This document shows, piece after piece, positions 19,099 to 44,903 of a stretch of 64,000 bases of DNA. The DNA is taken from the NCBI GenBank assembly GCA_030710605.1, contig CP092864.1:139423418-139487417 (forward strand), given 5' to 3'. Source of the DNA: Cordylochernes scorpioides. Its lineage: Eukaryota. The position numbers and the translations under genes are program-made. The notes under the pieces were generated by a model, which was given only the letters and a program-made list of their open reading frames with translations, was not told the origin of the DNA and ran no database searches. The stretch's first letter is position 1. Each line of letters opens with the position of its first letter.

Positions 19099-19215
19099 TC
19101 AGTTACCATGTTCCGGCCGGCTCAGGAAACCCAGAGCCGTGTTGAAGAGGCTGAGAGGAGTCTTGCCATCTGTGATGAGGGTGGATTGGAGGCCCAGGCT
19201 CTGGAGGAGTTTCAC
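19099..19215 (-). CDS. MVP: MVP exon 13 (terminal; TGA at 19101..19099)
   Basis: Acceptor ttgctgcag|GTG; translates to [39 protein letters not shown] possible alternative donor CATG|GTAACT at about 19107 could lengthen the C-terminus. The plus-strand ORF 19024..19242 is the antisense shadow. Confidence 0.75.
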
Positions 19216-19439
19216 CTGCAGCAACAACGTATGTTGACTTGAGCTGACAGTATATCCCAAAAATCCACAATCATTATGTTGATATTCCTACCAAACTACA
19301 TTTGGGGAGGAAAATAGACCTATAAACAATTACAGCTAAATCTCTTTAATTCAACAGGCAGGGGTCGGTAACCTGCGGCTCGCAGCCACATGCGGCTCTT
19401 TGGATGTGAAGCTGAGTGTAGTACTCTTATAAATACTGA

Positions 19440-20045
19440 TTTAATACACAATAAAATCCTAAATAATTGCAATTAGATATTCAATGAATGAAAGGAAGAA
19501 AAAATTGCAACGAGTTTCTTTATTCTGAATGTTGGCAAGCTTTCAGGCGTTAGCCTATCTTCAGGCCGATTTCGCAAAAAAATATATATACAAATAACAC
19601 AAAATCTAAACTATATATAAGGTGTAGAACTAATCCTACCGGAGTAAATTAAACAAATTGTAATAAAATATATTGTATACAACACAAAATCTAAACTATA
19701 TATAAGGTGTAGAACTAATCCTACCGGAAGTAAATTAAACAAATTGTAATAAAATATATTGTATACAACACAAAATCTAAACTATAGGTGTAGAACTAAT
19801 CCTACCGGAAGTAAATTAAACAAATTGTAATAAAATATATTGTATACAACGATACAATCGTTGTATACAATATATTTTATTACAATTTGTTTAATTTACT
19901 TCCTTATATATAGTTTAGATTTTGTGTTGTTTGTATATATATTTTTTGCGAAATCGGCCTGAAGATAGGCTAACGCCTGAAAGCTTGCCAACATTCAGAA
20001 TAAAGAAACTCGTTGCAATTTTTTCTTCCTTTCATTCATCAAATA
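19440..20045. repeat. ~600-bp foldback/long hairpin with internal 3x 63-bp tandem repeat; centre about 19857
   Basis: 19445-19855 is the reverse complement of 19860-20045 (gcaacgagtttctttattctgaatgttggcaagctttcaggcgttagcc / ggctaacgcctgaaagcttgccaacattcagaataaagaaactcgttgc). Confidence 0.8.
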
Positions 20046-21577
20046 CTGATTTATGTAAGTACTATTTAATTTGAAATGAAGGCGATAAAAACGTGGTGAT
20101 TTTCTTTTAATGGTAAAAACACAACTTTCAGGCAAGAATGGCCTTCTTCAGGTTACAACTTGGAAATATTTTAAAACTATGGATATGAAAGATAGCCCAA
20201 TACAGTAGGTAAATAGTTCAGCTGGGGGGATTGGCGAGGTAAAACACGGAGTATTGGGGTGGGAGGTCTCTTTTTTTCGGTTAAAACTGGGCATGCAGTG
20301 CGAGACCAAAGATCCAAGGACTAGGCGCTGATACTTGTTCCTGACGCCCTTGTACTATTTAATGTTGAAAATAAAAAAAAATGTATGGCTCTTTAAAAAC
20401 TTTGAGATTTTGGAAAATGTAATTTTGCCTAAGGGAAAGGTGCTGGGAAAGGGAAAATGTAATTTTGTCTAAGGGAAAGGTGCTTCCTGTTGAATTAAAG
20501 AAGTTATATACTCTTCAATCATCTGTTATAGAAGGTACAATTCAGTGCTTCCTGTTGAATTAAAGAAGTTATATACTCTTCAATCATCTGTTATAAAAGG
20601 TACAATTTAGATTATAGATTAGAAACATAAGGTAACACGACCACATCCAAATAAATAGTGTGTGAAGTTTCAAGTAACAGTGTTCCTCCCTCATTAGGCA
20701 TAATTAATTTATTTGGATATGTAACATGCTTTGTATTTATTTATGTAAAATATTTAATTATTCTTTTTGATTTTTCTACATAGTTAGGTAGTCGGCAATA
20801 CTTTACTTTCTTTCTTTTTGTAATTTTGCATAAGTTTTGTTTATATATTATGGTTAATCTTGTAATTAAATTAAGTATTTATTTATTTAACAGTTGGGAG
20901 AGACACGCCATATCCACAATTTGGATAATTGCGTGTATATTTTAAATTATATACAATTAATACAATTGAACATTGGGAATCATTAAAATTAAACGTTCGA
21001 TGTCAATTTTTACATATAGTAATTATAAGTAGTAGCTTGAAATATGTACGGTCAACACTTTTGCCTCAAAATATACATCCTGCAGAATCTATTAAACTTG
21101 ATGTATTGGTCTTTATTGCAAGCAGCTTGTTTTGTATTAGTCAGGTAAAGTTGGTTTTCTTCCCTTAGATCAGAAGTTAATGGACAGTTTATCAGAAGGT
21201 GTTCAGGGGTTTGTTGTTCGATTCCACAAGTGCATGCAGGTGAATCAATTTTGCCAATTCTAAACAAATATGTGTTGAAGTCACCATGTCCAGTAAAAAA
21301 TTGAACGTTATAGAAGTTGGGTTGAACATAATATTAAAACATAAAGTATTGTGACTATCCCTTATTTATAAATAGGAAACATTACAGGGATACGATCTTG
21401 TTACCTTATGTTTCTAATCTATAATCCAAATTGTATGTCATCATTGTGTGAAAAGGGCTGATATCAAAGTGGAATAAGAAAGATAATTTAGATGAAGGAT
21501 TGGGAGACTCCAACTGAAGATAGAGTATTCAGCACATATGGCTTGTGCAACAGTTTGATGTAAAAATGGAAACAGAC

Positions 21578-21766
21578 CTGGAGCTCAGGACCAGCGGAGG
21601 CAATGGAGCGGATAGTATCCTGGCCAATGGCATCCACCATGGACTTGAACTTGTTGGCATCAATGGCCGCCAGCTCCTTGGACTTGGAGACTTCCAGTTC
21701 ATTCTGTTTGAGCTCGTAGGCCAGCTCAGCCTGCCTGGCCCGGGTGACCAGCTCCAGCTCATTATC
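21578..21766 (-). CDS. MVP: MVP exon 12
   Basis: Acceptor tgtgacag|GAT; rc translated by hand to DNELELVTRARQAELAYELKQNELEVSKSKELAAIDANKFKSMVDAIGQDTIRSIASAGPELQ. Donor CAG|GTCTGT. The plus-strand ORF 21545..21853 is its antisense shadow. Confidence 0.8.
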
Positions 21767-22918
21767 CTGTCACACATATCATCTAGGATTAAAACCTACG
21801 TTTTTTTTTTAATCAGGAAGATGGAGATCTTTAAACACGCATACATTTATTAAGACAAACTGGTCTTATAGAAGATTTTTCTTGGAGATTACAAGATGTG
21901 GAAACTGAGAACAAGAAATATATACAGAACAACAAAAAAAAAAAGGTTTTTGTACACATGATATATTACATCTATATATATATTAAAGATTTATAGACAG
22001 AATAGTTAATAACACACATTATAAATTATGGGCACTATAGAAGCTTATTGATTCTTAAGAGATCTTTAAGCAGTTACAGAGAGATGAAATCTTTATATTT
22101 CCATAACATGGGGCCAATGGCTTTCAAGATAATAGACTTTCATCAAGGTCCAAAGAATAATGAAAATGTCTTGAGAGTTGTTTACGTCACACCTAGAGAG
22201 GGGGGGCAAAGTCTGACTGTGGATAGCCAACCAACGGCAGCAGCTTACCCATCATGGAGACTTATGAACACTTAGGTAAGGGTGAGAGCTGCTGTTTTGA
22301 AAGCTAGTGGCCTATTTTATCATAATGCAGCAACTAATCACTTTCATCATAAAACAGCTCGAGGAGCATGAACTCATGGAATTCGTGTAATCTTTGCACA
22401 AGGGGATAAGAAACAACAACAACAACACTAATCTCTGTGTGTGTGGCTGTTTTAAGATCTCCTAATTTTAAATAGAACCAGCTAGCTATTCTAGCCAAAT
22501 ATATTTCATATTTTGGCACAAAAGGGAACAAAGGAAAGATACTAATACTATAAAAAATTTGAAAAGAGCAACTGATAAAATGGGATGTATCCATTTAGAA
22601 GCTTTCAGCAGTAATTATTGTCTAGATCATGAAAATTTCCAAAGGTTTCATTAATTAAGGCTTATTGTATGCATATTGTTGACACCTACACTGTAGGTTC
22701 TCTCCAATCACTGAGTGAGGATGGTATGCATTTTCTTGTATCTATAATCCAAATTGTGCTTTATCAAATCTAAACTACAAATAACATTTTCTTATCAAGC
22801 AACTGAAAGTTGCTGATGGCTTGCGCCATCTATCGGAATAAATATCAACTATTCTCGTTGATTTTTAATTATTCCAGAATTGGCCAAATACCCATTCTTG
22901 ATTAACCAAGAAAAGCTA

Positions 22919-22960
22919 ACCACGGACGCGTTTCGGGCTGTTGGCCCTCATCAGCGTGGT
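22919..22960 (-). ncRNA. Minimal type I hammerhead ribozyme motif, inverted copy (same strand as MVP)
   Basis: Plus strand reads ACCACGGACGCGTTTCGGGCTGTTGGCCCTCATCAGCGTGGT, the exact reverse complement of the HHR at 23210-23251. Confidence 0.75.
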
Positions 22961-23209
22961 GCAAGCTGTACCTCAACGACCAAAATGATAGATGGCGCAA
23001 GCCATCAGCAACTTTCAGTTGCTTGATAAGAAGAAGCCTTTTTCTTAATTTATGCACCTTATCCCAGTACAATATTACATTTGTACTATTTTTTCACATT
23101 GTGTAGCGTTCTCACGCAATTCTGGCCTTAACTACCCGTTTCATGATTTTTCAGGATGCCTTAAGGACCAATTTTTTTTTTTTTTTTTGGTCGTTGAGGT
23201 ACAGCTTGC

Positions 23210-23251
23210 ACCACGCTGATGAGGGCCAACAGCCCGAAACGCGTCCGTGGT
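23210..23251 (+). ncRNA. Minimal type I hammerhead ribozyme motif (intact core)
   Basis: ACCACG-CUGAUGA-GGGC(CAACA)GCCC-GAAA-CGCG-UC|CGUGGU. Helix I is 6 bp (ACCACG/CGUGGU). Core C3-A9 is complete. Helix II is 4 GC pairs with a 5-nt loop. G12A13A14, A15.1/U16.1 and the GUC cleavage triplet are present. The palindromic ACGCGU helix III is typical of dimer-acting minimal HHRs. Predicted cleavage after C23245. Confidence 0.8.
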
Positions 23252-23550
23252 TAGCTTTTCTTGATTAATCAAGAATGGGTATTTGGCCAATTCTGGAATA
23301 ATTAAAAATCAACGAGAATAGTTGATATTTATTCCGATAGATGGCGCAAGCCATCAGCAACTTTCAAGTTGCTTGATAAGAAGAAGCCTTTTTCTTAATT
23401 TATGCACCTTATCCCAGTACAATATTACATTTGTACTATTTTTTCACATTGTGTAGCGTTCTCACGCAATTCTGGCCTTAACTACCCGTTTCATGATTTT
23501 TCAGGATGCCTTAAGGACCAATTTTTTTTGGTCGTTGAGGTACAGCTTGC

Positions 23551-23592
23551 ACCACGCTGATGAGGGCCAACAGCCCGAAACGCGTCCGTGGT
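23551..23592 (+). ncRNA. Minimal type I hammerhead ribozyme motif (second direct copy)
   Basis: Identical sequence to the 23210-23251 copy; predicted cleavage after 23586, 341 nt downstream of the first site. Confidence 0.8.
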
Positions 23593-23920
23593 TAGCTTTT
23601 CTTGATTAATCAAGAATGGGTATTTGGCCAATTCTGGAATAATTAAAAATCAACGAGAATAGTTGATATTTATTCCGATAGATGGCGCAAGCCATCAGCA
23701 ACTTTCAGTTGCTTGATAAGAAGAAGCCTTTTTCTTAATTTATGCACCTTATCCCAGTACAATATTACATTTGTACTATTTTTTACAAATAACATGATGA
23801 AACCAAACAAAAATTTGATATTTAGAGATCAGAGTGTGAATTAGAAAACAAAGGTAACATTAATAAAAAAAAATTAGGCAATTGCATGTCTGTCATTATT
23901 GAGAAGGGTAAATCACTTGC

Positions 23921-24164
23921 CTCTTTGATGGTGTTGGCCTCGGCTTTGAGCTTGGCCTGCTGGACAGCGGTCTCCCCCTCAATCTTGCAGGACTCGGCCC
24001 GCGCCAGAGCCTCAGCCTTGGATTGCCCACAGGCTTCCACAGTCTGGGACTGGGACTGAAGGTCCAGGAGCTCGAGGCGGGACCTCTCTGCCTTCACTTC
24101 GTCCTCAATCTTCTGTCTGGCTAGCCGGCCCTTGGCCTCTTGCTCCTGTCTCTGGGCCTCGTGT
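23921..24164 (-). CDS. MVP: MVP exon 11 (followed by GC-AG intron)
   Basis: Acceptor ggtgcag|A completes AGA (R); translates to HEAQRQEQEAKGRLARQKIEDEVKAERSRLELLDLQSQSQTVEACGQSKAEALARAESCKIEGETAVQQAKLKAEANTIKE. Donor AAAGAG|GCAAGT is a perfect GC-donor consensus; no in-phase GT alternative found. ORF 23822..24277(-). Confidence 0.75.
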
Positions 24165-24611
24165 CTGCACCACGGCACCAGGGTTACTTGTGGCCCCATA
24201 GAACACCGCACAGTATTGATTGATATATACACACTCTCTATTAATATTATATACATCGTGCATCTTGGGAACTTCAATGGTTTAGTATATAAATTATGGA
24301 TGCTAACAGACCTCTGCGAAGATCAACGGGCAACATAACAGATGATCTATGTCACAACGGTGTTATGCACTGAAGAATCTTCAGAGGAGAATACCTCTAT
24401 AAAATAACCTGGGCTGACAGTATCCAGTACAGCCTAGGGCACAGGTGAACAGCACTGTCTGCATCCATGTGAGGATCGAGTGCAAAGATGTCAGCCTCCA
24501 TGTCAAAAGCTGTCTCTTTCAGAGGTGAAAGTCAAACTGCTACAGTAACTCTAGCTTTTTATAGCCAACAGCAGTCGAACCCCTAACCCACCATGAAGGT
24601 TGAATAATATA

Positions 24612-24930
24612 CAGTACTCCATGAGAGGATACTCGCGCTAGAGGACACCTCTCTATAAAGGACAATTTTCATTTGCAAAATCCCAATTTTTACTATTTAG
24701 CAACAATTCAGTAAGAGGACACCTCTCCCTAAAGGACAATTTTCATTTGCAAAATCCCAATTTTTACTATTTAGCAACAATTCAGTAAGAGGACACCTCT
24801 CCCTAAAGGACAATTTTCATTTGCAAAATCCCAATTTTTACTATTTAGCAACTCTCCAGTAAGAGGACACCTCTCCCTAAAGGACACTTTTGTTCTACAA
24901 TTAGGTGTCCTTTACAGGGAGGTTCTACTG
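24612..24930 (+). mobile_element. MITE family A copy with 3x internal 62-bp duplication (MVP intron 10)
   Basis: ggacaattttcatttgcaaaatcccaatttttactatttagcaacaattcagtaagaggacacctctccctaaa x3, then the normal 3' TIR. Confidence 0.75.
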
Positions 24931-26232
24931 TGTACACACTTATTATTATAATATACTGATTATCATTTAAAAACTTTAAATTAAACTGAACTCTATATCA
25001 TATTAGGATTGTGGATTGTTGGGAGGTACAGTAAACCCTCTACACGATCGTATCAAGTCTTATTCTGGTAGACTTGATGCTGTAACCAGGAGGGACACTC
25101 CCTCTTTAGAAATCTTGAGTTCAACTGACCCGGTTGATGGACCTCAGCAATGGTCCCACTCCAGGGATACAGAGGAGCTGTGTCTGTGCTCATGTTAGAG
25201 TCAGCAGCAAAGGCTTCCATGTTAGGAACAGCCTCAAATTACAGGCAAAGTCAGACTTTACCAAAGTGTGCCTGGATCATGGTGCCATGATCAACGAAAG
25301 CTGCACCCCTATACCCCATTCCATGAGATCATGAACTCATGGGATTCGTGTAATCTTTACAAAGGGGATAAGAAACAACAACAGGATTGTGGTTTGTGAA
25401 ACGGAAATGACACAATGGCCTGCTACTGAATAAGTGCTCCCAGTTTTAAAGATAGACACATTCTGCTTCACCCAGTCATGATGCTTGTCACGCTCTACAA
25501 GCTTGATATGATTGAGTGGAGATAAGATAGATAAAGAAAGAGGTTTGTGGTGTTTTTCTACAATTATTGCACAGTTTCTCACATTCTGCACACCTCCAGA
25601 GTTTCACTTGAAGGCTTCCAGTGAGTATTCCTCCTCCCTAGATGAGATCCCTTCCATAACTTCTTGTTGCTTACACAACGTAGACATATCTCTTCCCTGG
25701 TGGTGGTGGCCAGCTTCTTCTAACTCAATGACTCCAACCCCGAGGTCTTACAGACACAATTGGTGGTTCCTTTTCCCTAGCATCACCTCAGAATCTAAGG
25801 TCAGTTCTGTCCAAGCTGAAGTAATGGTTCTTTAGGAGACATTCCCTTTCTTTATCAATGATCTTGAGGCAATATAAATGCCTGTAATGTGAAACTTCAC
25901 CCTTTTTGGGGGAAAGCACCTCAAACACCAGGTTACACAGATGAGATCAATACTGAGTAGACCAGTGAACCTAATCAAACCTCTTCAGATCACCTGAAGA
26001 AACTCTTAGAAATTCTTAGAGCTGGTCTCTCATCAAAGGAGAAGTTAGACAATCAATTTTGATTTCATACAAGAGTGGGGTGAATCATACGGATCACTTA
26101 GTGGAGACTTTACAGTCATAAAGAAGCTATAAAGAAATTGTCACCTACACACAAAGAACAATGGGGGGAACCTTGTCATTGCAGCCTCTTTTATGACTGC
26201 AACTTGGTTATAACATCCTAGCTTTAAAGATC

Positions 26233-26545
26233 CCAACTGTATAAATATATACACCTATCCCCCGATTTACACGGTACTTTTTTACACGTTTTCGCTTTTA
26301 CACGGTTTTCCAAATAAGTTTTTGTTTTGTTTTTATAGCACTATACTAAATGCTACTGTGATTGAACGCATGCGCTGTGTACACATCTCACGAGGAATCC
26401 CGAGCTTATGTGCTGACTACATATTTTAACCTGTCAATGCATTTTATTTTTATTTCTGTGTACACCTATCCCCCGATTTACACGTTTTACTCAGGAACGT
26501 ATCTACTGTGTAAATCGGGGGATAGGTGTATTTATATATCGAAGA
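26233..26545 (+). mobile_element. MITE family C copy
   Basis: tacacctatcccccgatttacacggtac...ctgtgtaaatcgggggataggtgta. Confidence 0.75.
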
Positions 26546-27651
26546 AGGTATCAAAGCTAATGGCGACTAGTTTATTTATTTATGCGGTATAATCTTGGCA
26601 AGCTTTCGGACTAGGACATCCTTCAACAGGTTGTTACTGAGTAGCCTGTTGAAGGACGTCATAGTCCAAAAGCTGGCAAAGATTATAACACATAAATAAA
26701 TAAACTCGTCGCCAATAGATTTGATACCTTCTTCGAAATTATGTCTGGCGATTCCTTCTTTTTGAATATATATATATATATATATACTAGACGGGTGACC
26801 CGGGCTTGGCCCCGGGATTGACACTTGTGCATATCTACCCGAGTGATATATATTTAGATAAGATCTTTTTTTAATAATTGTTTGTATTATCTATTTGTTT
26901 GCATCAGCATAATTTAATCTAATATTTGATAGAGGGCGCTGTTCCTAAGCTAAGTAGAATAATTTGAATATATAGTTTTAATAATTGATTTATATATTTT
27001 TTAAAATAGCCTATCGTCTTCCCCGTATTTTTTTACCTATGTATGGAAATTTTGGTTTGAATTAGTGAACTACTGCGAATTTTTATACCGGACATACAAA
27101 CATACAAACAAACAAACATTCATTTATATATATATAGATATTACCTCAAGAGAATGACTGGAGATCGTGGAAATTGACGATAATTGATAATAGATCTTCA
27201 TATCGAAGACACAATTTTGATATTAACATTATAAAATGGAAAATAATCAATAATTATATATATAGATATAACAGTAATGAATTGGTTCCAAGTGGTGTTG
27301 CTAGTGTATTCTACAATTAAGGTATATATGAGGAACAAAGAGAGAGGATATCTGTAAAAATAAAGGCTGTCTCTCCCATCAAAAGAGACGCTGAAACTAA
27401 GCGGCATCTATTGACTGTCTCCACAAACTAGCAGACTAATTCAGAGGCACTTAGTTTTAGTGTCTATTTTGATGGGAGAGGAGAGATCTTTATTTTTATA
27501 GATCATTATCTTCCCAAATTTCCATCTCTATATTTTGGCCATAGAATTGGCCTAGCCACTTTGTCAGCTAAACACTTCTTTGGCAGATTGTGGAAGATTT
27601 CATTTGATAGATCTCAAAATTAAAACCCACTATGTGAACTGAAGAGGGGCT

Positions 27652-28230
27652 TCTTCTTTCTTATCTCCACTCAATCACACTAAGGTATCAAGCTTGTCTT
27701 CTTCTTCTTATTTCTTATCTCCACTCAATCACACTAAGGTATCAAGCTTGTCTTCTTCTTCTTCTTTCTTATCTCCACTCAATCACACTAAGGTATCAAG
27801 CTTGTCTTCTTCTTCTTCTTTCTTATCTCCACTCAATCACACTAAGGTATCAAGCTTGTCTTCTTCTTCTTTCTTATCTCCACTCAATCACACTAAGGTA
27901 TCAAGCTTGTCTTCTTCTTCTTCTTTCTTATCTCCACTCAATCACACTAAGGTATCAAGCTTGTCTTCTTCTTCTTCTTTCTTATCTCCACTCAATCACA
28001 CTAAGGTATCAAGCTTGTCTTCTTCTTCTTCTTTCTTATCTCCACTCAATCACACTAAAGTATCAAGCTTGTCTTCTTCTTCTTCTTTCTTATCTCCACT
28101 CAATCACACTAAGGTATCAAGCTTGTCTTCTTCTTCTTCTTTCTTATCTCCACTCAATCACACTAAGGTATCAAGCTTGTCTTCTTCTTCTTTCTTATCT
28201 CCACACAATCACACTAAGGTATCAAGCTTG
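27652..28230 (-). repeat. ~60-bp tandem repeat x about 9.5 derived from a LINE 3' end (CTT-rich tail)
   Basis: (cttcttcttctttcttatctccactcaatcacactaaggtatcaagcttgt)n, contiguous with LINE 3' sequence at 28230-28440. Confidence 0.8.
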
Positions 28231-28621
28231 TAAAGCTTGAGATTTTTGATGGTGTCTGCCGGGGAAGAGTAGAGCTCATCAATGGATGAGTCAATACAGT
28301 CAATAATATGTCTTGGGGTTGCAGGCTGAGAATTGCACTTAGTACATAGTGGGAAAACCTTGCAAAGTCGGCCTGCCACTGAGTAGTGCTCCCAGTCTTA
28401 ATGACAAAGGCAGACACATTTTACTTTACCCAATCATGAAGAGGGTCTTTAACCCAAAACCATATTCCCTAGGTGGGCACTTTACAATTTGCCAAAGCTG
28501 CGGCTTTGTTTCCGACCAGAGTCTGCTAGTTTGCAGAGATGGCGCTTAGTTTTAGGGTTTATTTTCAACAAGATAATTTTATAGATCCCCAGGGCAAGAA
28601 ATATAAGGAGAGTGGAGTGAC

Positions 28622-28833
28622 CTGGCAGTTGCCTCCTGGCTCGAGGTGGTGATCTCAATGGCCAGCTGGACGGACTTCTGCAGGGCATCCCGGGTCCGCT
28701 GGTCCACCGGCTCCACACTCTGGATGTCTACGCTGGTGATGTTCAGGTTGTTCTGGGGGAAACTGATGTGGTGTCTCTGCTGGCGCTTCTCATCAAACCC
28801 AAACACTGCCTCGTGGATGATCCTCGCGGAGTT
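28622..28833 (-). CDS. MVP: MVP exon 10
   Basis: Acceptor atggcag|AAC; translates to [70 protein letters not shown](R). Donor CAG|GTCACT (weak) but forced by alignment and phase. ORF 28579..28806(-). Confidence 0.8.
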
Positions 28834-29199: not shown

Positions 29200-29261
29200 T
29201 GCATCGGCCGGGAATCGAACCCGGGGCGCCCGCGTGGCAGGCGAGCATTCTACCACTGAAC
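29200..29261 (-). pseudogene. tRNA-Gly-like copy (5' acceptor strand missing) plus a shorter fragment at 29120-29159; same conserved flanking repeat (28960-29120)
   Basis: tgcatcggccgggaatcgaacccggggcgcccgcgtggcaggcgagcattctaccactgaac, preceded by a poly-A/T run and ctagccgaatgacccgggcaacgcccgggg... Confidence 0.5.
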
Positions 29262-30291: not shown

Positions 30292-30451
30292 CAGTAAAAC
30301 CTCCCTGTAAAGGACACCTAATTGCAGAGCCAAACTGTCCTTTAGGGAGAGGTGTCCTCTTACCAGAGAGTTACTAAATAGTAAAAATGGTAATTTTGAA
30401 AATGAAAACTTTCCTTTATAGAGAGGTGTCCGCTAAAGAGAGGTTCTACTG
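30292..30451 (-). mobile_element. MITE family A copy (inverted; MVP intron 9)
   Basis: cagtaaaacctccctgtaaaggacacctaattgcagagcc...agaggttctactg. Confidence 0.75.
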
Positions 30452-33790: not shown

Positions 33791-35216
33791 GTGCCTTATC
33801 AATTAAAAGAAAATATGTAAATATATTATTTAAAATTGAAGATACTTTGGCCAGTAAATCTTTTTATTATCTTGATGTTTCGACAAAAATCTTTTGTTCT
33901 CATCAGGAGTAAACAAAAATTGATACATTTGGCAAGGAGTTAAAAATTAGGCATCCTCTATCTTTATGATATATTATTTAAGAAAAGTTCATTTATTTTA
34001 TGATTTGAATATATGTAAATTTAATTATTGTAGAAAAGGTTATTTGCATACTTCATGTGCTGACTGCCAACAAATTTGCAGCTGGATGAACACACTGATG
34101 GTTGATCAGGGTCTCTCCCTCGGTTTATCTAGATTCTACAAGGCCGCAGTCAATGTCCGTTGGAGAATGATGGATTCGCCGAATGTCATGGTTTGCTCGG
34201 AGGAGGAAAGCGAAGATTGAATGCGGCTGATTCCACACTAGCCCTCTCAATGATATCTTAACCTTGACATATTCTAAACATTGGTACTTTAATTTAAATA
34301 TTTAATCATGTATGGTTCCTTTTGCTCTGTATGTTTATTTTTTATATATATGGTTATATTTCTTTTTGTTTGGTTTTTCTTTCTTCTCTCTTTCCTTATT
34401 ACTTCTTATATTCTAGTTTTTACTTTTGAAATATCTTCCTTTCCTAAATCCCGTAGAGGGGAATCATGTATAGGGCTGGATGCCCTAATAAAAAAGGCTT
34501 ATGTGTGTGTGTGTATACTTCATGTGTATATAGTTGTTAGTTAAGTGTATTTTGAGGATAGTGATGAAGACATGATGAGGCTCAGATTTGTAGGCCTATT
34601 TGTTCTTAATTCTTTAATAAATGTTTTGTGAAGACTTCTTCTTTCTTATTCCTACTCAATCATATCAGGGTATCAAGCTTGTAGAGCTTGTTGATGGTAT
34701 CTGCTGGGGATGAGTAGAGTTCATCAATGAATCTTCTTCTTCTTCTTTCTTATCTCCACTCAATCATATTAGGGTATCAAGTTGTGACCCTTGATGGTGT
34801 CTGTTTGACAACCATCATGACTGGGTGAAGTAGAATGTGTCTGCCTTTGTCATTAAGACTGGGAGCACTACTCAGTGGCAGGCCGACTTAGCTCCAAAAG
34901 AAATGGCCGCCTCTGACATGAGGAACAGATGCCATGTGCAGTCGCTCCTAACATGGAGTACAAACACTGCTCATCCTGTATCCCTGGATCAGGAGCCCTT
35001 ACAGGGTACTATCAGCCGGGCCAGCTGAGCCCAGGTTTTTTAGCGAGCTTGTTACTGCTCCCCCTCCTTCTTTTTCATCTGGGCTTGGGACCGGCAAAGA
35101 CGGAGTAAAATGAATTAGTCAATACAGTCATATGATGTGTTGTGAAATAGAGAGTGAAGGGAAGTCTTCTTGAACTTATATTAAAAAGAATTCCCTTCAC
35201 TACAACATAAACTTAC

Positions 35217-35348
35217 AGGATCGACAGTGTCATCAGTGAACCCCTCCCGAGCTCTGAGGATGAGGCCTTCAGTCTCCCCGAGGACATAGATGTCCTGGAT
35301 GCCGGCTTCCAGCTTCTCCCCAGGCTGGAGGAAGAAAGACTTCTCTCC
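35217..35348 (-). CDS. MVP: MVP exon 6
   Basis: Acceptor tgtcag|GGA; translates to [44 protein letters not shown]. Donor CCT|GTAAGT. ORF 35181..35465(-). Confidence 0.85.
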
Positions 35349-35550
35349 CTGACATACCACACACATGTGAGCTGGTTTATAACATTCAATATCACATACA
35401 CACAGTATTAGAGTACTAAGAAGCGGTCTGGTAGATGAAATTGGCGAAACCTCTGGAAGGGTCAAACACTGATGAGCCGAGCCCTTCCAATATATTTTTC
35501 ATTGCAGCAAGGACAGAAAATTTCATGCTTTAATGGTTTGATGTATTATA

Positions 35551-35707
35551 CAGTAGAACCTCCCTGTAAAGGACACCTAAGTGCAGAGCCAAACTGTCCT
35601 TTAGGAAGAGGTGTTCTCCTACCGAAGCGTTGCTAAATAGTAAAAATGGTCATTTTGCAAATGAAAACTGCCTTTGGAGAGGTGTCCACTAAAGAGAGGT
35701 TCTACTG
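35551..35707 (-). mobile_element. MITE family A copy (MVP intron 5)
   Basis: cagtagaacctccctgtaaaggacacctaagtgcagagcc...agaggttctactg. Confidence 0.75.
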
Positions 35708-36067
35708 TATAGGAGAACTGTAAGTGAAACTGGAAAATCTTGGCCATAAATGTGATTTGGTCTAATGGATGTGCAGATATTGGGGCCTTAAGAACACCTA
35801 TTTGATCTGTATTAGAGCAGCTAGGTTTCTTCATCATGATAAACATCATACCTATGGTGTAACTATACTATGTGATTGATAACAAATCATTCTGCCATGT
35901 ATTGCCAGGTGTTGGAAGTCTTAGTCGGTGATGGCTGCAACTTTAGAATGAGATAGCTTGCTGGGTGACAGATTGGAAGAAAGTCTTTAATTCACCTCTC
36001 AATTCTTTAAATCATTGTATTGTTGGTGGTGATTTATAAAATTTAAAAATGGCTAACCTTCTAAATG

Positions 36068-36300
36068 ACCAGTTTTTTTGTTGTTGAGGTACAGCTTGCA
36101 ACATGCTGACAAGGGCCAACAGCCCGAAACGTGTATGTGGTTAGCTTTACTTGATTAATCAAGAATGGGCATTTGTCAAATTCTGGAATAATTAAAAATC
36201 AACAAATAGTTGATATTTCAGTTGCATGATAAGAAGATGCCTTTTTATTAATTTATTCACCTTATCCCAGTACAATTTGATGTTTGTACTATTTGTTCAC
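36068..36300 (+). repeat. Degenerate dispersed copy of the HHR-bearing repeat (core mutated to CUGACAA, G8A)
   Basis: gttgttgaggtacagcttgcaacatgctgacaagggccaacagcccgaaacgtgtatgtggttagc plus shared downstream unit sequence (cttgattaatcaagaatggg...ccttatcccagtacaat). Confidence 0.7.
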
Positions 36301-37384
36301 CTAATTCTTTTTTTGAAGTAAACGAAAAATTGCGCTACAAATAATAAAAATAAAACTACAACCTTTCGCAATGAGTTTCTTTTATTATGATATACGCGAG
36401 CTTTCGGGCTGGAGCCGCCCTTCTATGGGCAATATTTCAGCATACCATGAATACCGGCCACAAATTTAATTTAGATAGTCCAACTTGCCACTATAGTAAC
36501 ATAACCACCAAATCTGAAAGATTAATCCTTGAATTGCTGATTTCCAAACAACACAATAGCATTAATCGTAGAATAGATATCCCAGAACAATTTTGTCATA
36601 TTCCATACCACAAAAATCAGATTTCTCGCTTATCCAATCTATAGTCTAAAACTTAACTTTATTAAAATATTGAAATTTAAGGTTAATTTACTTCCAATTG
36701 TTAAACATAGTAAAATAGTAATAATTTATGTAGATTTAATACTTTTCTTTCTGATAATTTATGTAAAATTTGTAACAAATTAATGCATATAACTGTCTCT
36801 CAAAAATCAAATAGTTCATTTTTGCCTGTAGAAGGGCGGCTCCAGCCCGAAAGTTCGCGTATCTACTTATATAATTGCCTTATTCTGTCTGTGTGAAGTT
36901 CACTGTGTGAAGTATGTGGATATGGATGGAATGGATAAAATAAAAAAAGTGTCAAGGGATGGGAATCGAACCCACGACCTTCCGCTTACCAGGCAGATGC
37001 CATGACCACTAGGCCACATGACCACAATTTATAATTGTAACAAATAGTATTTGAATCAAAACATTCAATCGGGTAAAACACGGGTGTTGCCCGGGTCATT
37101 CGGCTAGTATCATAATAAAAGAAATTCATTGCGAAAGATTCTAGTTTTATTTTTATAATTCTTTTTTGTTTAAGGTGGAAAAATATCGGGCTTCTGAGGC
37201 TAAATTTCTTTTAAAACATTTTTCGGACACAAAAGCTAGGGATTTATGAATTTAAATGCTTTGAAAGAAACTTGAAGCCTGATAATTTCATCTCAATATT
37301 TGATACAAGGCATTATTTTAATGAACTGTAAATTTTTTTTTTTTTGTTCTTTTATTTCAGAGAATAAACAACTTTTTGTATTGT

Positions 37385-37554
37385 CTACAAACTCCCTGTA
37401 CAGGACACTTAATTGTAGAGCCAAAGTGTCCTTTAGGGAGAGGTGTCCTCTTACCGGAGAGTTGCTAAATAGTAAAAATGGTAATTTTGCAAACGAAAAC
37501 TGTTCTTTGTGGAGAGGTATCCGCTAGTGGGGTGTCCAGGTTGAGGTTCTACTG
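37385..37554 (-). mobile_element. MITE family A copy (MVP intron 5); further partial copy at 37866-37912
   Basis: ctccctgtacaggacacttaattgtagagcc...ttgaggttctactg. Confidence 0.7.
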
Positions 37555-37925
37555 TATATTTTTAAAAAAAGTGAGTGGAGGGTATTTGTGAGACTTGGTG
37601 AACAAGGTTCAACTGCATTAACTTATCCTTGATGTAACGCATGCTTCATAATTTGGGTATATTCCTATTCACTAAGCTTTGTGCTCAAAGGTGAGTGGGG
37701 GGTGCTCAGCTAACGGAACCAACTCACCTGACTCCAGGCATAGGGCTACAAACATAATATATATGGTGGGTGCTCAGCGTGTTCTTCATGTGTCAATACA
37801 CTCATGGATGAACACATAAGGAAGTTGTACCTTCCTAGCATGTATATCGGGATTCAGACAAAAACACTTTGGCTCTGCAATTAGGTGTCCTTTACAGGTA
37901 GGTTCTACTGTAACAAAATTCCCGT

Positions 37926-38222
37926 AGGATGGTCTAAACCATTGGTTTTCGGCCGCTATGACCCGGGTTCGATTCCGGCATTGGGCACTTTTTTTATGTT
38001 AAAAAAAAATAAAAATGCTCCAATGGCCCCCGATTCTTGCAAAAGTCCAACCCCACCAGCGAGTGCAAGTAACCAAACTGGTACATTTGTATGTGCAAAG
38101 TCGTACTATTTTCACATGTGTAGACATGTGGTACACTTACAGTAAAAGCAGTCGCCTACTTCTACCCACCATGATTATCATGGCCTGTACCATGTGTACT
38201 AGGGATAAGCAAAAAAAAAAAA
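37926..38222 (+). mobile_element. tRNA-derived SINE copy (5'-truncated head), TSD aaattcccgt; MVP intron 5
   Basis: aggatggtctaaaccattggttttcggccgctatgacccgggttcgattccggcattgggcac...actagggataagc(a)10. Confidence 0.8.
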
Positions 38223-38575
38223 TTCCCGTGTGAGGTCTGCTAGTTCCCCCTATCGGGCGCCACCCCAGGTGGCAGATAGGGGAATGCCTCCCAGAAATGG
38301 GCGGTACCAGGAAAATGAAATACCCGGGGTGAATCAAAGACTGTGGCAGGTTCTTGGGACACAGTATCAGCCCCAGAGTAACACATGGTCTTTGGAGAGA
38401 ATGTCAGAGAACTGGGAAGCATGGAAAGACCATGTGGCCCACCCTCAGTAGAGGAAGGCACTGAAGGAAGGAAGGAATAACAAAACTATCATGTATCAAA
38501 ACAAGCAGCTAATAATTCTATCCTCAAACTAATAATTCCTCTTTCACAAAAATGTGTTATAACATATACATATAC

Positions 38576-38815
38576 CTTGACCAGTTTCTTCTGTCCCAGC
38601 TGAGGCTTGCCAGTCTCAGCATTGACGGGGTCGAGGATGACACAGTACTGGCGGTTGGAGAGAGTGACTATGGGCACCAGCCCCACCACCTGGACGTACA
38701 CACTGGGGATGTAGGTCTCCGTGTCCTCCATGGTCACCAGCCACTCCTCTCCGTTCTTCCTCTGCTTGCCAAACTCATCCGTGAAAGTCCTGGTGGCTTT
38801 GACATGGATGGCCTC
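38576..38815 (-). CDS. MVP: MVP exon 5
   Basis: Acceptor tggcag|GAG; translates to [80 protein letters not shown]. Donor AAG|GTATAT. ORF 38489..38737(-). Confidence 0.85.
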
Positions 38816-40159
38816 CTGCCATCACACCGCACCTGGTGAGAGCAGTAGTCTTAGGGGAATATAGGGGGAAACATGATTTCAATTGGATTCCATGTTAAAA
38901 TATTAAGGGGGTAAAAAGACCAAATCCAAATAAGTGGTCTATACATGACAGAGCATTTATAATTCTTTATAGATAAAAGCCTAGGGCACTTCTCCCGTCA
39001 AAATAAACATCAAAACTACACACCATCTATGGACCATCGCCGCAGACTAGCGGCCTGGGTCAGTAACAAAGCCACAACACCAGCTTTGTCAAATTGAGAA
39101 GTGTCCGCCAAGAGACCATGGTTTTGGGTTAATGGCCCTCAGCAGCCTAGAGCCAACTTTATTCCATGATATCCATAAGGGATCCAATGGAATCCTCAAA
39201 ATCTACCAAAGAGATGTTTAGCTGGCAAAGTGGCTGAGCAAATCTATGGCCAAAATATAGATGGAAATTTTGCCGGGAGGAAATTTATCTAAAAAAGCAT
39301 AGGGCACTTCTCTCCTATCAAATAAATGACAAACACCATCTATATTATATATTCATTTGTTTTTGGATTTACCCGTTGAAGAACAGGGTTTTGCTCGAAA
39401 GCTCACACCTCAATGTATTTGTATTAGAGCTTAGAAACATGTATAAGACTATAAATCTAAATAAAAATATAGTAAGTGATGTTTCAGTAACAGTGTTGCT
39501 TTTGTCTGATGATGTTTACAATATTGTTAATAAAACAACACATACTCATTATTTGATCTCCATCATGCTTTATAAATAACACAGAAGCTGGCTAGGAAGA
39601 TTAGAGATGTCAAGAAATGCCCCAACCAAATGAAAACTTTGAAAAGTCATCAGAACAAATTACTACAACTGTATTCTTTCAAAAGGAAAGATGCAAAAAA
39701 GAGGAGGACACAAAAACAATTTGTGACTTTTTTCAATTGTTGTGCTAACCATTTGCCAAGGCATATGTTGGTGAAGGTATATTGTTTACTATTGGGCGTA
39801 AAGGACAGTTAGGCTTGTGGACCTTTGTTTTACCATATATATTGGGAACATGTGCATCATAATTTTTTAACTTGGTTAAAAGCCTATAATTAATATATTT
39901 ATTTTTTCTCCAGTTTTTAAGTATGGCATTCAATTTATTTTTGAAGTTTTTGTTGGATTATTTATTTTGTTACTTTTAGTGTCATATATAAAGGTGAAGT
40001 GCAGAAACATAAGATATACCTTTGTGCCTCTCTATAACCACATCACTTTGTACCAAGATGTTGTTATATAACCAAGTTATTATAACCATGGTTAAAGTAA
40101 GTGGGACCATAGAATGGTGCTGGTCTACCCACCAAGCTATAGAAGAGGTATGCAGTTGT

Positions 40160-40700
40160 AACCACCAAGTTATCTTCTTCTTCTTTCTTATCTTCACTCA
40201 ATCATATCAGGATATCAAGCTTGTAGAGCTTGTTGATGATGTCTGTGCTGGGCATGAGTAGAGCTCATCAATGGATGAGTCAATACAGTCAATAATGTGG
40301 TTTGGGATTGCAGGTTGAGAATTGTGCTTAGTACATAGTGGGAAAACTTTACAACCATTCTGGAAAGTCATTGTCCGTAGATGACCAGACTTAAGTCTGG
40401 AAATCAAAGACTGTTGTCCACCAATATATATAGGAGGTAGGCAGTTGTAACTACCAAGTTATCTTCTTATTCTTCTTTCTTATCTCAACTCAACAATCAT
40501 ATTAGGGTATCAAGCTTGTAGAGCTTGTGATGGTGTCTGCTGGGGATGAGTAGAGCTCATCAATGGATGAGTCAATACAGTCAATAATGTGTTTTGGGAT
40601 TGCAGATTGAGAATTGCACTTAGTACATAGTGGGAAAATCTTGCAACCATTCTGTAAAGTCATTGTCCATAGATGACCAAACTCAAGTCTAGAAACCAAG
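40160..40700 (-). mobile_element. Two adjacent non-LTR retrotransposon 3' fragments (RT C-terminal CCHC-like motif plus (CTT)n tail); MVP intron 4
   Basis: ORFs 40207..40407 and 40502..40699: ...SRLKSGHLRTMTFQNGCKVFPLCTK.NSQ.AIP.HIIDCIDSSIDELY...; tail gtgattgagtgaagataagaaagaagaag. Confidence 0.7.
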
Positions 40701-40740
40701 TTATAAAAGAGGCAGGCTGTTGTAAAAAAAGTGTATGTAC

Positions 40741-40967
40741 CTTCTCAGTGAGAACATGGGCCTCCACAATGTCCATGATCTCCTCATAGGCCCCAGGCAG
40801 GTATGCTCCCACCTTCTTGACCAGCCATTCCTCCCCTGCCACCCTCTGGTTGCCATCCCGGTCCTTGGTCTCTTTCTCCGCCCGCAGCTTGAGGGCCTGG
40901 TTGGGCTTGATGACTGTGGCCACAATGGTCTCCACCACCTCCACCTCCTTCCTGGGAATGTAGGTCC
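40741..40967 (-). CDS. MVP: MVP exon 4
   Basis: Acceptor tatcag|GG; translates to [76 protein letters not shown]. Donor AAG|GTACAT. ORF 40660..40995(-). Confidence 0.85.
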
Positions 40968-41539
40968 CTGATACACAACATATACTCCCATTCATCTATT
41001 CACTTCCTTATTTATAATATTGTCATGCATTAAGTCTAAATGAAATATACTCATGGACAAAACTTATGAAAGTTATACCTTTTAGCATGTATATCAGGAA
41101 TTAGACAATAACTCTGAAAGATATTACAGGAACCTTTAGTGAATACACACGAGATAACCGGGGGGGAAGAAGTCTGACCTCACCTCCCTTGACCCTTGGA
41201 ATATTCGACTAAATTCTGGTCTGTTTCCAAGGCGACTAACGTGGCAATGACATCCATTTTCCAATGAAGAGCAAAATGCATGGAGACATCTAAGGTTTTT
41301 CATTGGACATAACAACAACGAGATAACCAAGTGTGAACAAAGTTGTCTCTGTCTCCTTCTAAGAACACTCTTGAAAATTTACTCTCAAAATCACTCTAGA
41401 AATAATCATTTTCAAGGCATTTCCAGAGAAAAATATGCCTATCAAAATATAGTAAAACTTGTCTCTAAAGGACAACACCTAGTTGCAGAGTGTAGTTTAG
41501 ATAGAAGTGTCCAGAGAGTTACAAATTAGTAAATATTTT

Positions 41540-41650
41540 TGGTCACAGAGGTACAGTCTGCACCACGCTGAAGAAAGCGTTCCACTAGATGGCGCTCTGC
41601 CATCTAAAAGTTCATGTGAACGTGGTCAGGAAATGCCTTTTTTTATTTAT
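41540..41650 (+). repeat. Internally deleted copy of the HHR-family repeat, abutting the mariner-like element
   Basis: ggtcacagaggtacagtctgcaccacgctgaagaaagcg...ctagatggcgctct...gtggtcaggaaatgcc. Confidence 0.5.
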
Positions 41651-42985
41651 ATACATAGTGTGATCAATAATTTCCAGGAATGCTAAATATTTAAAGAAAT
41701 ACAAAAGTATAATAAAGTTTTATTTAAAATTTCTCAAAATAATCACCGTCACTATCTATACACTTGTTCCATCTTTTTTCCAGATATCAAAACACCTCTA
41801 AAAATCCTCATCTTTCAGGCTTTTCAAAATATTCTTCGTATTCTCCTTTATTTCAGGTATTGAGTCAAATCGACATCCTTTTAAGACTTTTTTAATTTTA
41901 GGGTAAAGGAAAAAGTCGTTGGGAGCAAGTCAGGAGAATAGGGTGGCTGGGGTAGTAAAGCAATTCCATGTTTAGCCAAATAGAGTGGTACAGTGACGGC
42001 CGTATGTGGCCGTGCGTTGTCATGATGCAAGAGCCAATTTTTCTGATGCCATTTTTTGGGTCGTTTCTGATACACAGCCTCCCTTAAATGTCGCAATACA
42101 TCAAAATAGTAATGTTGATTAATGATCTGACCCTCGGGCTCGAATTCATAGTGTACCAATCCCTTTACATCAAAGAAAGTGATAAGAAAACACTTAAACT
42201 TCGATTTGATCATCCTTGATTTCTTGAATCTTGGTTCTCCAGGCTCTAGCCACTGGCTTGATTGCCTCTTAGTCTCGGGATCATATCCGTACACCCATGT
42301 TTCATTTCCCGTGATAATATTTTTGAGCCAATGGGGATCAGAATTAAACATTTTGACTATGTTTTTGCATGTTTCTTTGCGATCCTCTTTCTGCTCATTC
42401 GTTAAGAGATGTGGGACAAATTTAGCTGGGGATCGTTTAAGATGCAGATCATTCTTTATGAGGGTTTGGTATGTTCCAAAAGAGATATTCAAGTCTTCTG
42501 ATAGCTCTCTGATATTTATTCTTGGGGTTTCTTTGATGGATAACTTGATTTTGAGTGCATTTTCGGGGTTTCTTATTGATAAAGGTCTGCCAGTATGTAG
42601 ATCATCCTTGACACTTTTTCAACCAGCTTTAAATCGTGCAAACCATTCAAATTTCCTCGATTGTGATAGGGCATCTTCTTTAAAAGTCTGCTTCAACATT
42701 TGAAATGATTCAGAAGCTGTTTTCCCTAATTTAAAGCAAAACTCTATGCAGACTCGCTGTTTTTCAATACAGTCTATACTGAAGTTAGAAAATGTTCTGA
42801 TATACTCGAGATTATAAATTCGAAAAAAAAACATGAGCGCGTGCGTCTGTGTGTTCATTTTTTTTTTCTACGTATTGATAAATGTTTTATCTATAAGGTC
42901 CTCATAAAATTATTTCATTATTTTGAATAGTTTACATGATCCAGTCTCATATTTGGAAATTATTGATCACACGTTGTATATATGG
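41650..42985 (-). mobile_element. Mariner-like element (Tc1/mariner superfamily) with frameshifted transposase; in MVP intron 3
   Basis: ORF 42619..42858(-) matches the mariner N-terminus (...CIEFCFKLGKTASESFQMLKQTFKEDALSQSRKFEWFARFKAG). ORF 41881..42492(-) contains WLLHHDNARPHTA and LLPQPPYSPDL. The C-terminal ...GDYFE lies in another frame. Imperfect TIRs are acatagtgtgatcaataatttcc (41653-41675) and rc of 42956-42978, with TA flanks. Confidence 0.85.
41881..42492 (-). pseudogene. Mariner transposase catalytic-domain fragment (DD34D-type motif HHDNARPH)
   Basis: The 203-aa ORF aligns to the mariner transposase core; the N- and C-terminal parts are in different frames. Confidence 0.8.
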
Positions 42986-43083
42986 CAGTAATGTTTTAAA
43001 TGCCAAAGTTGATGCTATAGTGAATTCTACCAAGTTAGCCTCTACCCACCCGAAAGAAAGAGATGGTAATAAGAGCCACCTAC

Positions 43084-43207
43084 CTGGGCCTTCAAAGAGC
43101 CATTCATCCTTGGCCCATCTCTTGACCTGGCCCTCGTCAACAAAATCTCTGGTGGCTCTCAGGCGGAAGGCAGAGTTGGTGGGCACCACTTGGAGCGGGG
43201 TCACATC
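43084..43207 (-). CDS. MVP: MVP exon 3 (53-bp intron upstream)
   Basis: Acceptor acatag|GAT; translates to DVTPLQVVPTNSAFRLRATRDFVDEGQVKRWAKDEWLFEGP(G). Donor CCAG|GTAGGT. ORF 42947..43204(-). Confidence 0.85.
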
Positions 43208-43260
43208 CTATGTCACAGCCATGTTGTTCGCCAGTTCCCCGTCAATCCTCATTGGCTCAC

Positions 43261-43456
43261 CTGATAGAGCTGCTCCCCCGGGTAGAGAGGGAAGGGTTCC
43301 TGTTCCAGCCGGATCTCCAGGTCCGCATGGCGTAGCTTGATCTGGTTCAGGGTGTCCACCACAATCTGGTTCTGCTCGTCCCGGGCCACCGGATTCCTGA
43401 TGGTGCAATAGTGGCAGGGGGGCACTACCACCATCTTCTCCGGGCCCAACACCACT
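43261..43456 (-). CDS. MVP: MVP exon 2
   Basis: Acceptor ctgcag|A; translates to ..VVLGPEKMVVVPPCHYCTIRNPVARDEQNQIVVDTLNQIKLRHADLEIRLEQEPFPLYPGEQLYQ. Donor CAG|GTGAGC. Covered by ORF 43249..43455(-). Confidence 0.85.
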
Positions 43457-43563
43457 CTGCAGCCACAATCCCCTCAACTGTGGGACTCTAACCTAAATAT
43501 ATATTTGGGTGTAAAAATAAAAATATATATAAAAACAGTCAGGTTTTATTATTTTTTTAAATA

Positions 43564-43738
43564 CAGTAGAACCTCCCTTTAGCGGACACCATGCTAGTAG
43601 ACACCTCTCCATAAAGGACAGTTTTCATTTGCAAAATTACCATTTTTACAATTTAGCAACTCTCCGGTAAGAGGACACCTCTCCCTAAAGGACACTTTGG
43701 CTCTGCAATTAGGTGTCCTTTACAGGGAGGTTCTACTG
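43564..43738 (+). mobile_element. 176-bp Tc1/mariner-type MITE (family A; TIR CAGTAGAACCTCCC, TA TSD), reference copy
   Basis: ta|cagtagaacctccctttagcggacacc...aggtgtcctttacagggaggttctactg|ta. Confidence 0.8.
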
Positions 43739-43837
43739 TACATTTAAAAAAAAAATTCTTATTTTTCAGATGTTTAGCATAATTATGCAAAATGTTCTTG
43801 ATTTCTCAGGAAAACTCAAAGACCAACTTTTTGGTTA

Positions 43838-44035
43838 TGAGGTACAGTCTGGCATCACGCTGAGGAGGGCCAACAGCCCAGAAAGGGAATGTGGTTGGCT
43901 TTTCTTGATTTATCAAAAAAATGAGTTAGCTAAATATTATAAAATAAACTTTAAAAAAATGTTTAATTTATTTTTGTTACACTAGATGGCGCTCTTCAAT
44001 CTCATGTGAGTGGTCAGGATATGCCTTTCTTATTT
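43838..44035 (+). repeat. Degenerate dispersed copy of the HHR-bearing repeat (CUGAGGA; GAAAC lost)
   Basis: ggttatgaggtacagtctggcatcacgctgaggagggccaacagcccagaaaggg...cactagatggcgctc...gtggtcagg. Confidence 0.65.
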
Positions 44036-44745
44036 TTAATATATTAGCGTATAAATGTCTTTCAGTAGCAGAAATATGTGGGGAATGATACAACAATTCC
44101 TTAGTGAGACCAAGTACTCTGTTCTGAAGCTTGACAACCACACTGTCACTATTACAATTCTTATCTTAATTTTGGTATTGTTACCTTTGACCCATTCTAT
44201 TGATAGCTCATAGAGAGACCACATCTGTTTCTTGAAACATGCCAAAAATGTTTTTTTTTCTAACCCATCAGTTGATTGCTTAAACTAACTTGCACAGACC
44301 ATGCTTTCCTAGTATATTGATGACTTGCTGGGGGATTTTGTAGATATCTTGTTTGTTTAGGCCACAGCACTGCAGGATGTGTTCTGCGGATGCCTCACAG
44401 CCAGACATTTTGTGCAGTGTAAAAAAAAAGTGTAAGGCACAATTTAGATTTTAGATTATCAACACCAGGTGATATGACCAAATCCAAATAAATAATTTAT
44501 TTATTTGGATTTGGTCTTATTGTGTTTAGGTAAAAAAAAAGGCCCAAAATGTAGCTTGACACCTGCAGCTCCAGAACACATTTTGGCTTGCATTAGATGC
44601 ATTGAACAGGACCTTTGGGAGAGGCCGCTGCTTATCATAAAACAGCTCGAGGAGCATAAACTTATGGAATTCATGTAATCTTTACACAAGGGGATAAGAA
44701 ACAACAACATGTCAAAAAAGAGTGAATTGTGATGAAGAAACTTAC

Positions 44746-44903
44746 ACCTCAGTGTCACTGGTGACGTAGGTCTTGGGTCCTTTCTCCACCCGGGTGACAT
44801 TGGTGGAGTGGTCGAGGATGTGGAGGAAGTGGTAGGGAGGGATTCTGTGGACTGTGTTCTCCATCCCGCTGCCTCCTCGGTGCTCCTTGCTTCTGTTACT
44901 CAT
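44746..44903 (-). CDS. MVP: MVP exon 1 (start codon at 44903..44901; alternative in-frame ATG at 44864..44862), ends phase 2
   Basis: rc reads ATGAGTAAC...GGGATGGAGAACACAGTCCACAGAATCCCTCCCTACCACTTC... = M S N R S K E H R G G S G M E N T V H R I P P Y H F L H I L D H S T N V T R V E K G P K T Y V T S D T E. In-frame TAA lies upstream of the first ATG. Donor GAGGT|GTAAGT at 44745. Confidence 0.8.

Follow-up and report, generated by a model that had tools for sequence, protein, structure and literature searches.

Here, we report a corrected model of the gene that encodes the major vault protein (MVP) in the pseudoscorpion Cordylochernes scorpioides. The stretch of DNA analysed, 64,000 nucleotides of contig CP092864.1 (GenBank assembly GCA_030710605.1) and hereafter called the window, very probably carries at positions 19099-44903 of its minus strand a 13-exon MVP gene whose likely product is a protein of 865 residues and not the 1059-residue protein held in public databases. 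The encoded protein is a full-length, collinear MVP, and the gene is ordinary and intact.

A survey published in 2013 found no arthropod MVP (PMC3762200), and one from 2024 reported MVP in most ecdysozoan lineages, arachnids other than mites included (PMC11219742). The MVP of C. scorpioides is already known and deposited; what is new is the corrected gene model only. MVP is a well-studied and widely conserved protein, and the gene itself adds little. The practical value lies in curation: the 865-residue model strips a mariner fragment and a repeat peptide from the deposited and UniRef protein, which as it stands would contaminate alignments, domain statistics (through a spurious combination of MVP and Transposase_1) and work on structure or phylogeny. 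The case also illustrates two ways in which automatic annotation commonly fails when an arthropod genome is rich in repeats, namely unmasked open reading frames (ORFs) of intronic transposable elements and GC-AG introns.

Protein identity and the 13-exon gene model

Pfam profiles detect in the 865-residue model the repeat domains Vault (223.7 bits, in four stretches), Vault_2 (127 bits, in two stretches), Vault_3 (117.7 bits) and Vault_4 (71.4 bits), together with the SPFH-like domain MVP_shoulder (PF11978; 171.8 bits), for which residues 539-656 cover profile positions 1-118 of 118. Each of these scores exceeds its curated cut-off, which is 23-29 bits for the vault repeat domains. Residues 15-861 align to residues 4-852 of human MVP (11dr_A) as a single HMMER stretch (1121.9 bits, E = 0), with only four short insertions or deletions, all of them in loops; within this stretch, residues 656-861 run ungapped against human residues 647-852, through the long cap helix and then the cap-ring segment. 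Exon 8, the largest, by itself matches MVP in the PDB with E = 1e-49, and the top 18 Foldseek matches were all MVP or vault structures (best E = 4e-69). The best match in a 5.8-billion-protein database is the deposited 'MVP [Cordylochernes scorpioides]' (P0121), followed, at 64-69% identity, by full-length MVPs from Limulus, spiders, scorpion, myriapods, corals, molluscs and echinoderms. The initial annotation of this stretch had already called the gene MVP, and had named a best hit to some other protein as grounds for giving up the name; the Pfam set, the collinearity with human MVP and the database search, in which the best matches are exclusively MVPs, all support the identification. Its estimate of a protein of about 865 residues, collinear with vertebrate MVP, also holds, although the N-terminal motif that it gave as IRIPPYH reads HRIPPYH in the sequence.

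The gene model was built independently of the exon list in that annotation. Stop-to-stop frames were taken on the minus strand, and all GT/GC...AG pairs that keep the frame open between neighbouring MVP-like segments were then considered. MVP-like pieces are confined to the minus strand, which the initial annotation had left unnamed, with an ATG at 44903 and the end of the stop codon at 19099. Exon 1 (44903-44746, 158 nt) contains this ATG and a second in-frame ATG at 44864, matches the model at 100% in tblastn and ends at the donor GGT/GTAAGT in phase 2. Exon 2 (43456-43261, 196 nt; donor CAG/GTGAGC, phase 0) is followed by intron 2, which is only 53 bp long (43260..43208) and has a position common to scorpion and Limulus, while exon 3 (43207-43084, 124 nt) ends at CAG/GTAGGT in phase 1. 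Exons 4 (40967-40741, 227 nt), 5 (38815-38576, 240 nt), 6 (35348-35217, 132 nt) and 7 (32510-32361, 150 nt) are all in phase 0. They are followed by exon 8 (31535-31069, 467 nt, phase 2), in which two ancestral exons are fused, exon 9 (30649-30508, 142 nt, phase 0) and exon 10 (28833-28622, 212 nt, phase 2), whose weak donor CAG/GTCACT occupies a position kept in three outgroups. Exon 11 (24164-23921, 244 nt, phase 0) ends at the GC donor GAG/GCAAGT, which makes intron 11 a GC-AG intron, and the series closes with exon 12 (21766-21578, 189 nt, phase 0) and exon 13 (19215-19099, 117 nt including the TGA stop at 19101-19099).

The 13 coding exons sum to 2598 nt, or 866 codons (865 residues plus TGA), and contain no internal stop. 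The intron phases are, in order, 2,0,1,0,0,0,0,2,0,2,0,0; 11 introns are GT-AG and one is GC-AG, and apart from intron 2 they measure 419-4457 bp. Length, codon count, open frame, phase chain and the 53-bp intron had all been proposed in the initial annotation and were reproduced exactly. Its statement that every boundary follows the AG...GT rule is false for the donor of intron 11; indeed, its own total of 2598 nt requires the GC donor boundary there. Its size range for the remaining introns (0.4-4.5 kb) is likewise correct, whereas its claim that they derive almost wholly from transposons is unproven: the share of intron bases with a further copy in the window is 43%, a lower bound, against 0% of exon bases.

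When the model was searched against the window with tblastn, it matched the 13 exons only, plus weak cross-matches among the internal repeats, and no second MVP copy was found in the window. A blind scan for GC islands recovered each MVP exon as an island in AT-rich DNA. Several other splice sites were tried and rejected. Phase-0 donors for exon 11 at 23939, 23945, 23957 and 23966 would each remove 6-15 conserved residues, and the phase-1 GT donor at 23917 allows no in-frame join to exon 12 without an added exon. For intron 1, the pair 44746/43456 alone keeps both frame and homology.

The junctions were compared with those of other MVP genes through an alignment of 26 sequences, 24 of them orthologues, onto which we projected the exon structures that an exact spliced aligner gave for three annotated MVP genes, those from Centruroides sculpturatus (L001), Limulus polyphemus (L002) and Nematostella vectensis (L003). 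All 12 junctions of the model fall in the alignment with the 24 orthologues without gaps. All 12 introns lie at the same column and in the same phase in Centruroides and Limulus, and eight of the 12 are exactly common to Nematostella. Among the conserved positions are those of the GC-AG intron 11, of intron 10 with its weak GTCACT donor and of the 53-bp intron 2; the counterparts of intron 11 in scorpion, Limulus and Nematostella have GT donors at the same position. On these sequence comparisons, the orthology of the gene to MVP is backed by a common gene structure.

One ancestral intron is missing from the C. scorpioides gene. In scorpion, Limulus and Nematostella, a phase-2 intron interrupts the conserved KK[AS]R codon ahead of VVFGP; exon 8 lacks it. 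Since all three outgroups have it, it is ancestral and was precisely lost in the C. scorpioides lineage, and it is owing to this loss that exon 8 has a length of 467 nt.

The two insertions of the deposited protein

The deposited protein (P0121; NCBI/UniRef, 1059 residues) describes the same gene, with the same start, stop and other 11 exons. Once an insertion of 172 residues and another of 22 residues are taken out, it is identical to our model at 865 of 865 positions, and the coding sequence that we reconstructed for it, 3180 nt or 1059 codons plus stop, equals the deposited length exactly. The identity also assigns the window to C. scorpioides or to a genome nearly identical to it. The first insertion, after Gly160, arises where the donor at 43084 is passed over, exon 3 is extended to 43050 and a 482-nt exon (42613..42132) is added. 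This spurious exon is contained in a mariner-type transposon in intron 3 (41648-42982, minus strand, 1335 bp), with terminal inverted repeats of 29 nt (41648-41676 and 42954-42982) that are 93% complementary. The element carries a degenerate transposase ORF on the MVP strand, with Pfam matches to HTH_48 and Transposase_1; a tblastn search of this ORF against plasmids gave no relevant match. The second insertion, after Glu764, uses a GT at 23917 (phase 1), 4 nt past the GC donor, plus a frame-restoring 62-nt exon of repeat sequence. Both identical copies of that exon (23292..23231 and 23633..23572) lie in a tandem duplication in intron 11 (22987-23784), which has a 341-bp unit and 2.3 copies.

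We judge these insertions to be probable annotation artefacts because they are absent from the orthologues, their junctions are unmatched in outgroups and the confidence of the AlphaFold model drops across them. In the alignment, both insertions face gaps in all 24 orthologues, and the two extra junctions coincide with no intron position of scorpion, Limulus or Nematostella. The available AlphaFold model was made of the 1059-residue protein and has a mean predicted local distance difference test (pLDDT) score of 55.9, so that only its per-segment confidence and secondary structure were used. Its blocks with pLDDT of 21-34 over residues 161-331 and below 50 over residues 933-954 are the two insertions. 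Helices are predicted at residues 829-896, 903-939 and 953-1005. The gap between the first two is a short break at 897-902; that between the last two, at 940-952, lies within the 22-residue insertion (937-958), which thus splits the predicted cap helix (903-939 and 953-1005). In terms of human MVP the insertion points correspond to approximately residue 149, in the repeat domains, and approximately residue 755, in the helix-cap region, which spans residues 647-814 (PMC13347060).

It is nevertheless conceivable that the 1059-residue protein is the true main product, with pieces of the mariner ORF and of the tandem repeat exonized and inserted in the repeat domain and the cap helix. This protein is the public record, its extra junctions are all canonical GT-AG and keep the frame, and the mariner ORF has the same strand as MVP; exonization of transposable elements is known to happen in eukaryotes. 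However, the inserted residues have no counterpart in the 24 orthologues, and the extra junctions match no outgroup intron position, whereas those of the simpler model all match one. The deposited model also bypasses the better exon 3 donor CAG/GTAGGT and the consensus GC donor GAG/GCAAGT, and two identical copies of its 62-nt exon lie 341 bp from each other. In the predicted structure, finally, the insertions are the segments of lowest confidence, and the second would interrupt the cap helix. Taken as the main product, the 1059-residue protein is therefore very improbable, and exonization as a minor isoform is possible. The 865-residue model is likely the better of the two and the likely product; the extra exons would be typical of gene prediction that leaves repeats unmasked and allows no GC donors.

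Translation start, conserved positions and assembly

We lean towards a translation start at Met1 (44903), the first ATG to follow an in-frame stop that lies 10 codons before it. The alternative is a start at the second in-frame ATG (44864; Met14, MENTVHRIPPYH...), which would give a product of 852 residues with a vertebrate-like N-terminus: model residue 15 is the first to align, with residue 4 of human MVP. The second ATG also has the better Kozak-like context (GGGATGG, with G at -3 and +4, versus AGGATGA), and residues 1-16 are predicted to be disordered. Yet the first ATG is the one that follows the upstream stop, and chelicerate orthologues, scorpion and Limulus among them, have an extension of 13-18 residues before the [YH]RIPP motif, in which the scorpion MTSQKHNRNEES resembles the C. 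scorpioides MSNRSKEHRGGS; the public model, too, begins at the first ATG. We consider initiation at Met14 to be distinctly the less probable choice, though one to be kept in mind, and number residues from Met1.

At the other end of the gene, no AATAAA or ATTAAA is found within 1 kb past the stop (17849-19098, minus strand); the first occurs at 18057, 1042 nt downstream. The 3' untranslated region is for this reason either long or provided with a non-canonical signal.

Several points weigh against the gene model and against its product being a normal MVP. The first is that the junctions rest on sequence comparison, which matters most for intron 11 with its GC donor, intron 10 with its weak GTCACT donor and the 53-bp intron 2. 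The second concerns the 5' end, since Met1 and Met14 are both candidate starts and 5' non-coding exons would be invisible to a model of this kind. The third is the low overall confidence of the AlphaFold model of the deposited protein, as given by its mean pLDDT above. The last point lies in the protein itself. Near-invariant columns were defined by a conservation of 95% or more among 117 full-length MVP orthologues (383 columns). C. scorpioides departs from 25 of these, the highest number among the 118 sequences (for the 117 others the median is 3 and the maximum 24), and the waist motif R-Q-D-N-E-R/K reads T-S-D-T-E-V (residues 48-53, across exons 1 and 2, approximately 44762-43453). Four of the departures, R48T, Q49S, N51T and R/K53V, fall in this motif, where Asp50 is kept, and the other 21 lie elsewhere. 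Among the 117 orthologues, the residues replaced here by Thr48, Ser49, Thr51 and Val53 are Arg in 117, Gln in 110, Asn in 104 and Arg or Lys in 113, respectively. In human vaults the contacts between the halves at the waist involve Asn22/Gln38/Asn40 and an Asp39:Arg42 salt bridge (PMC13347060). Conservation of these residues does not define the MVP family, though it has a bearing on how vaults assemble.

Such changes might be expected of a decaying or functionally released MVP copy in which the frame is still open by chance. The 25 departures, the most of any of the 118 sequences, speak for it, in particular R48T, where Arg is present in all 117 orthologues, and Val53, which stands in place of human Arg42 of the Asp39:Arg42 bridge (PMC13347060). 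On the other side, the ORF is intact over 13 exons and 2598 nt, all splice sites are usable, 358 of the 383 near-invariant columns (93.5%) are kept, and the identity to orthologues from sponges to chelicerates is 65-69%, evenly along the full length; nor does the window hold another MVP copy. Pseudoscorpions are a generally fast-evolving lineage, which would account for the excess of substitutions. Decay is thus scarcely credible, the least probable of the alternatives weighed here. Instead, judging from its sequence, the gene looks functional on account of its intact ORF, its intact splice sites and the 358 columns kept out of 383.

By homology, 39 copies of MVP would form each half-shell through lateral repeat and shoulder contacts and a coiled-coil bundle of cap helices, and two half-shells would join N-terminus to N-terminus into a 78-mer vault; this scheme of shell assembly is taken from published work (PMC13347060, PMC3762200). 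Because near-invariant columns, including the waist motif, are altered, normal vault assembly can only be inferred for C. scorpioides. As a smaller possibility, the rewritten waist motif (TSDTEV for RQDNER) may give vaults with an altered half-to-half association. No vault RNA was detected in the window by an Rfam scan at the gathering threshold, which gave three tRNA-like matches only; the genes for vault RNA and for the other vault partners, TEP1 and PARP4, are not expected to be linked to the MVP gene.

Splice acceptors, intergenic sequence and known vault proteins

The 12 acceptors of the MVP gene are without a polypyrimidine tract. The region from -23 to -4 is 35% G and 30% T, compared with 20% G and 31% T at 1368 other intronic AG sites used as background (resampling, p < 1e-4). 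TGTG occurs at eight of the 12 acceptors and at 7.6% of the background sites, and GTGTGATGGCAG is seen twice. In scorpion, Limulus and Nematostella the corresponding acceptors are of the usual T-rich, G-poor kind (4-16% G, 45-53% T), and TGTG occurs at 0 of 13, 1 of 14 and 2 of 16 sites, respectively. We rejected base pairing of these G/T-rich 3' ends with AC-rich sequence at the 5' ends of the introns (bridging of the teleost type) as an explanation: ACAC is present in two of the 12 intron 5' ends, and cognate pairs of ends (-14.8 kcal/mol) differ little from non-cognate ones (-14.2 kcal/mol, sd 4.5). The TGTG-containing acceptors, seen here in one gene, could reflect a genome-wide, lineage-specific change in 3' splice-site recognition in pseudoscorpions, a proposal that we regard as doubtful. 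Under it, recognition of the UG-rich element could fall, for example, to an altered U2AF2 or to a different factor. A literature search on GT-rich acceptors gave nothing relevant. If the proposal were true, altered acceptor recognition would help to explain the mis-splicing of the C. scorpioides genome by standard gene predictors.

The coding sequence has a GC content of 58%, with 76% at third codon positions (GC3), and the introns are approximately 36% GC. GC3 in the MVP coding sequences of the scorpion (23%) and Limulus (32%) is far below the 76% of C. scorpioides. The unusual acceptors, the high GC3 (76%) against the AT-rich genome and the accelerated change at conserved positions would be of import only if they proved to be genome-wide.

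Tandem repeats are found within and around the gene. Intron 10 holds a minisatellite with a 54-bp unit in 10.9 copies (27650-28231), and a different 54-bp unit is repeated 9.3 times at 12291-12791. Other arrays consist of 27 copies of a 46-bp unit (8908-10397), 13 copies of a 76-bp unit (45197-46185), starting some 300 bp upstream of the MVP ATG, and eight copies of a 53-bp unit (47068-47498). The three tRNA-like Rfam matches (36-47 bits, minus strand) are located beside poly-A/T stretches at 36950-37022 (intron 5), 29208-29261 (intron 9) and 49708-49777, and are probably the heads of tRNA-derived short interspersed nuclear elements rather than tRNA genes. No neighbouring gene was recognised in 1-19000 or 45000-64000, where all ORFs of at least 90 codons are repeat-derived, and the GC islands outside the gene (7673-7800, 17517-17611 and those in 59306-63801, including 61031-61142 and 63669-63801) contain no recognisable coding sequence.

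Among known systems, the MVPs of human, rat and rabbit in solved vault structures (such as 11dr, 4V60, 4HL8, 7PKZ, 9BW5 and 9Z4W) have the same order of parts as the C. scorpioides protein, from the repeat domains through the SPFH-like shoulder and the cap helix to the cap-ring. Human MVP has 893 residues compared with 865 here, and the C-terminal tail is shorter in C. scorpioides. There are further differences from the human protein: with a start at Met1 the N-terminal extension is 10-11 residues longer, one loop of the repeat region (residues 446-470 of the model) is approximately 10 residues longer, and the loop after the shoulder is approximately 10 residues shorter. At the waist, human R37-Q38-D39-N40-E41-R42 faces T-S-D-T-E-V. 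The closest annotated genes compared, those of Centruroides sculpturatus (P0135/L001) and Limulus polyphemus (P0123/L002), encode MVPs of 66-69% identity and share all 12 introns in position and phase. They differ in having one extra intron (phase 2, within exon 8 of the C. scorpioides gene), in that all of their donors are GT and in their T-rich acceptors (52-53% T, 4-10% G, versus 30% T and 35% G here). Finally, the shoulder domain matches in structure the SPFH assemblies flotillin, HflK/C, prohibitin and stomatin (Foldseek E of 3e-4 to 2e-2), a relationship that has been described for the vault shoulder (PMC13347060). The match is to a single domain, and the SPFH-family proteins are membrane-associated and without vault repeats; the C. 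scorpioides gene is not a member of that family.

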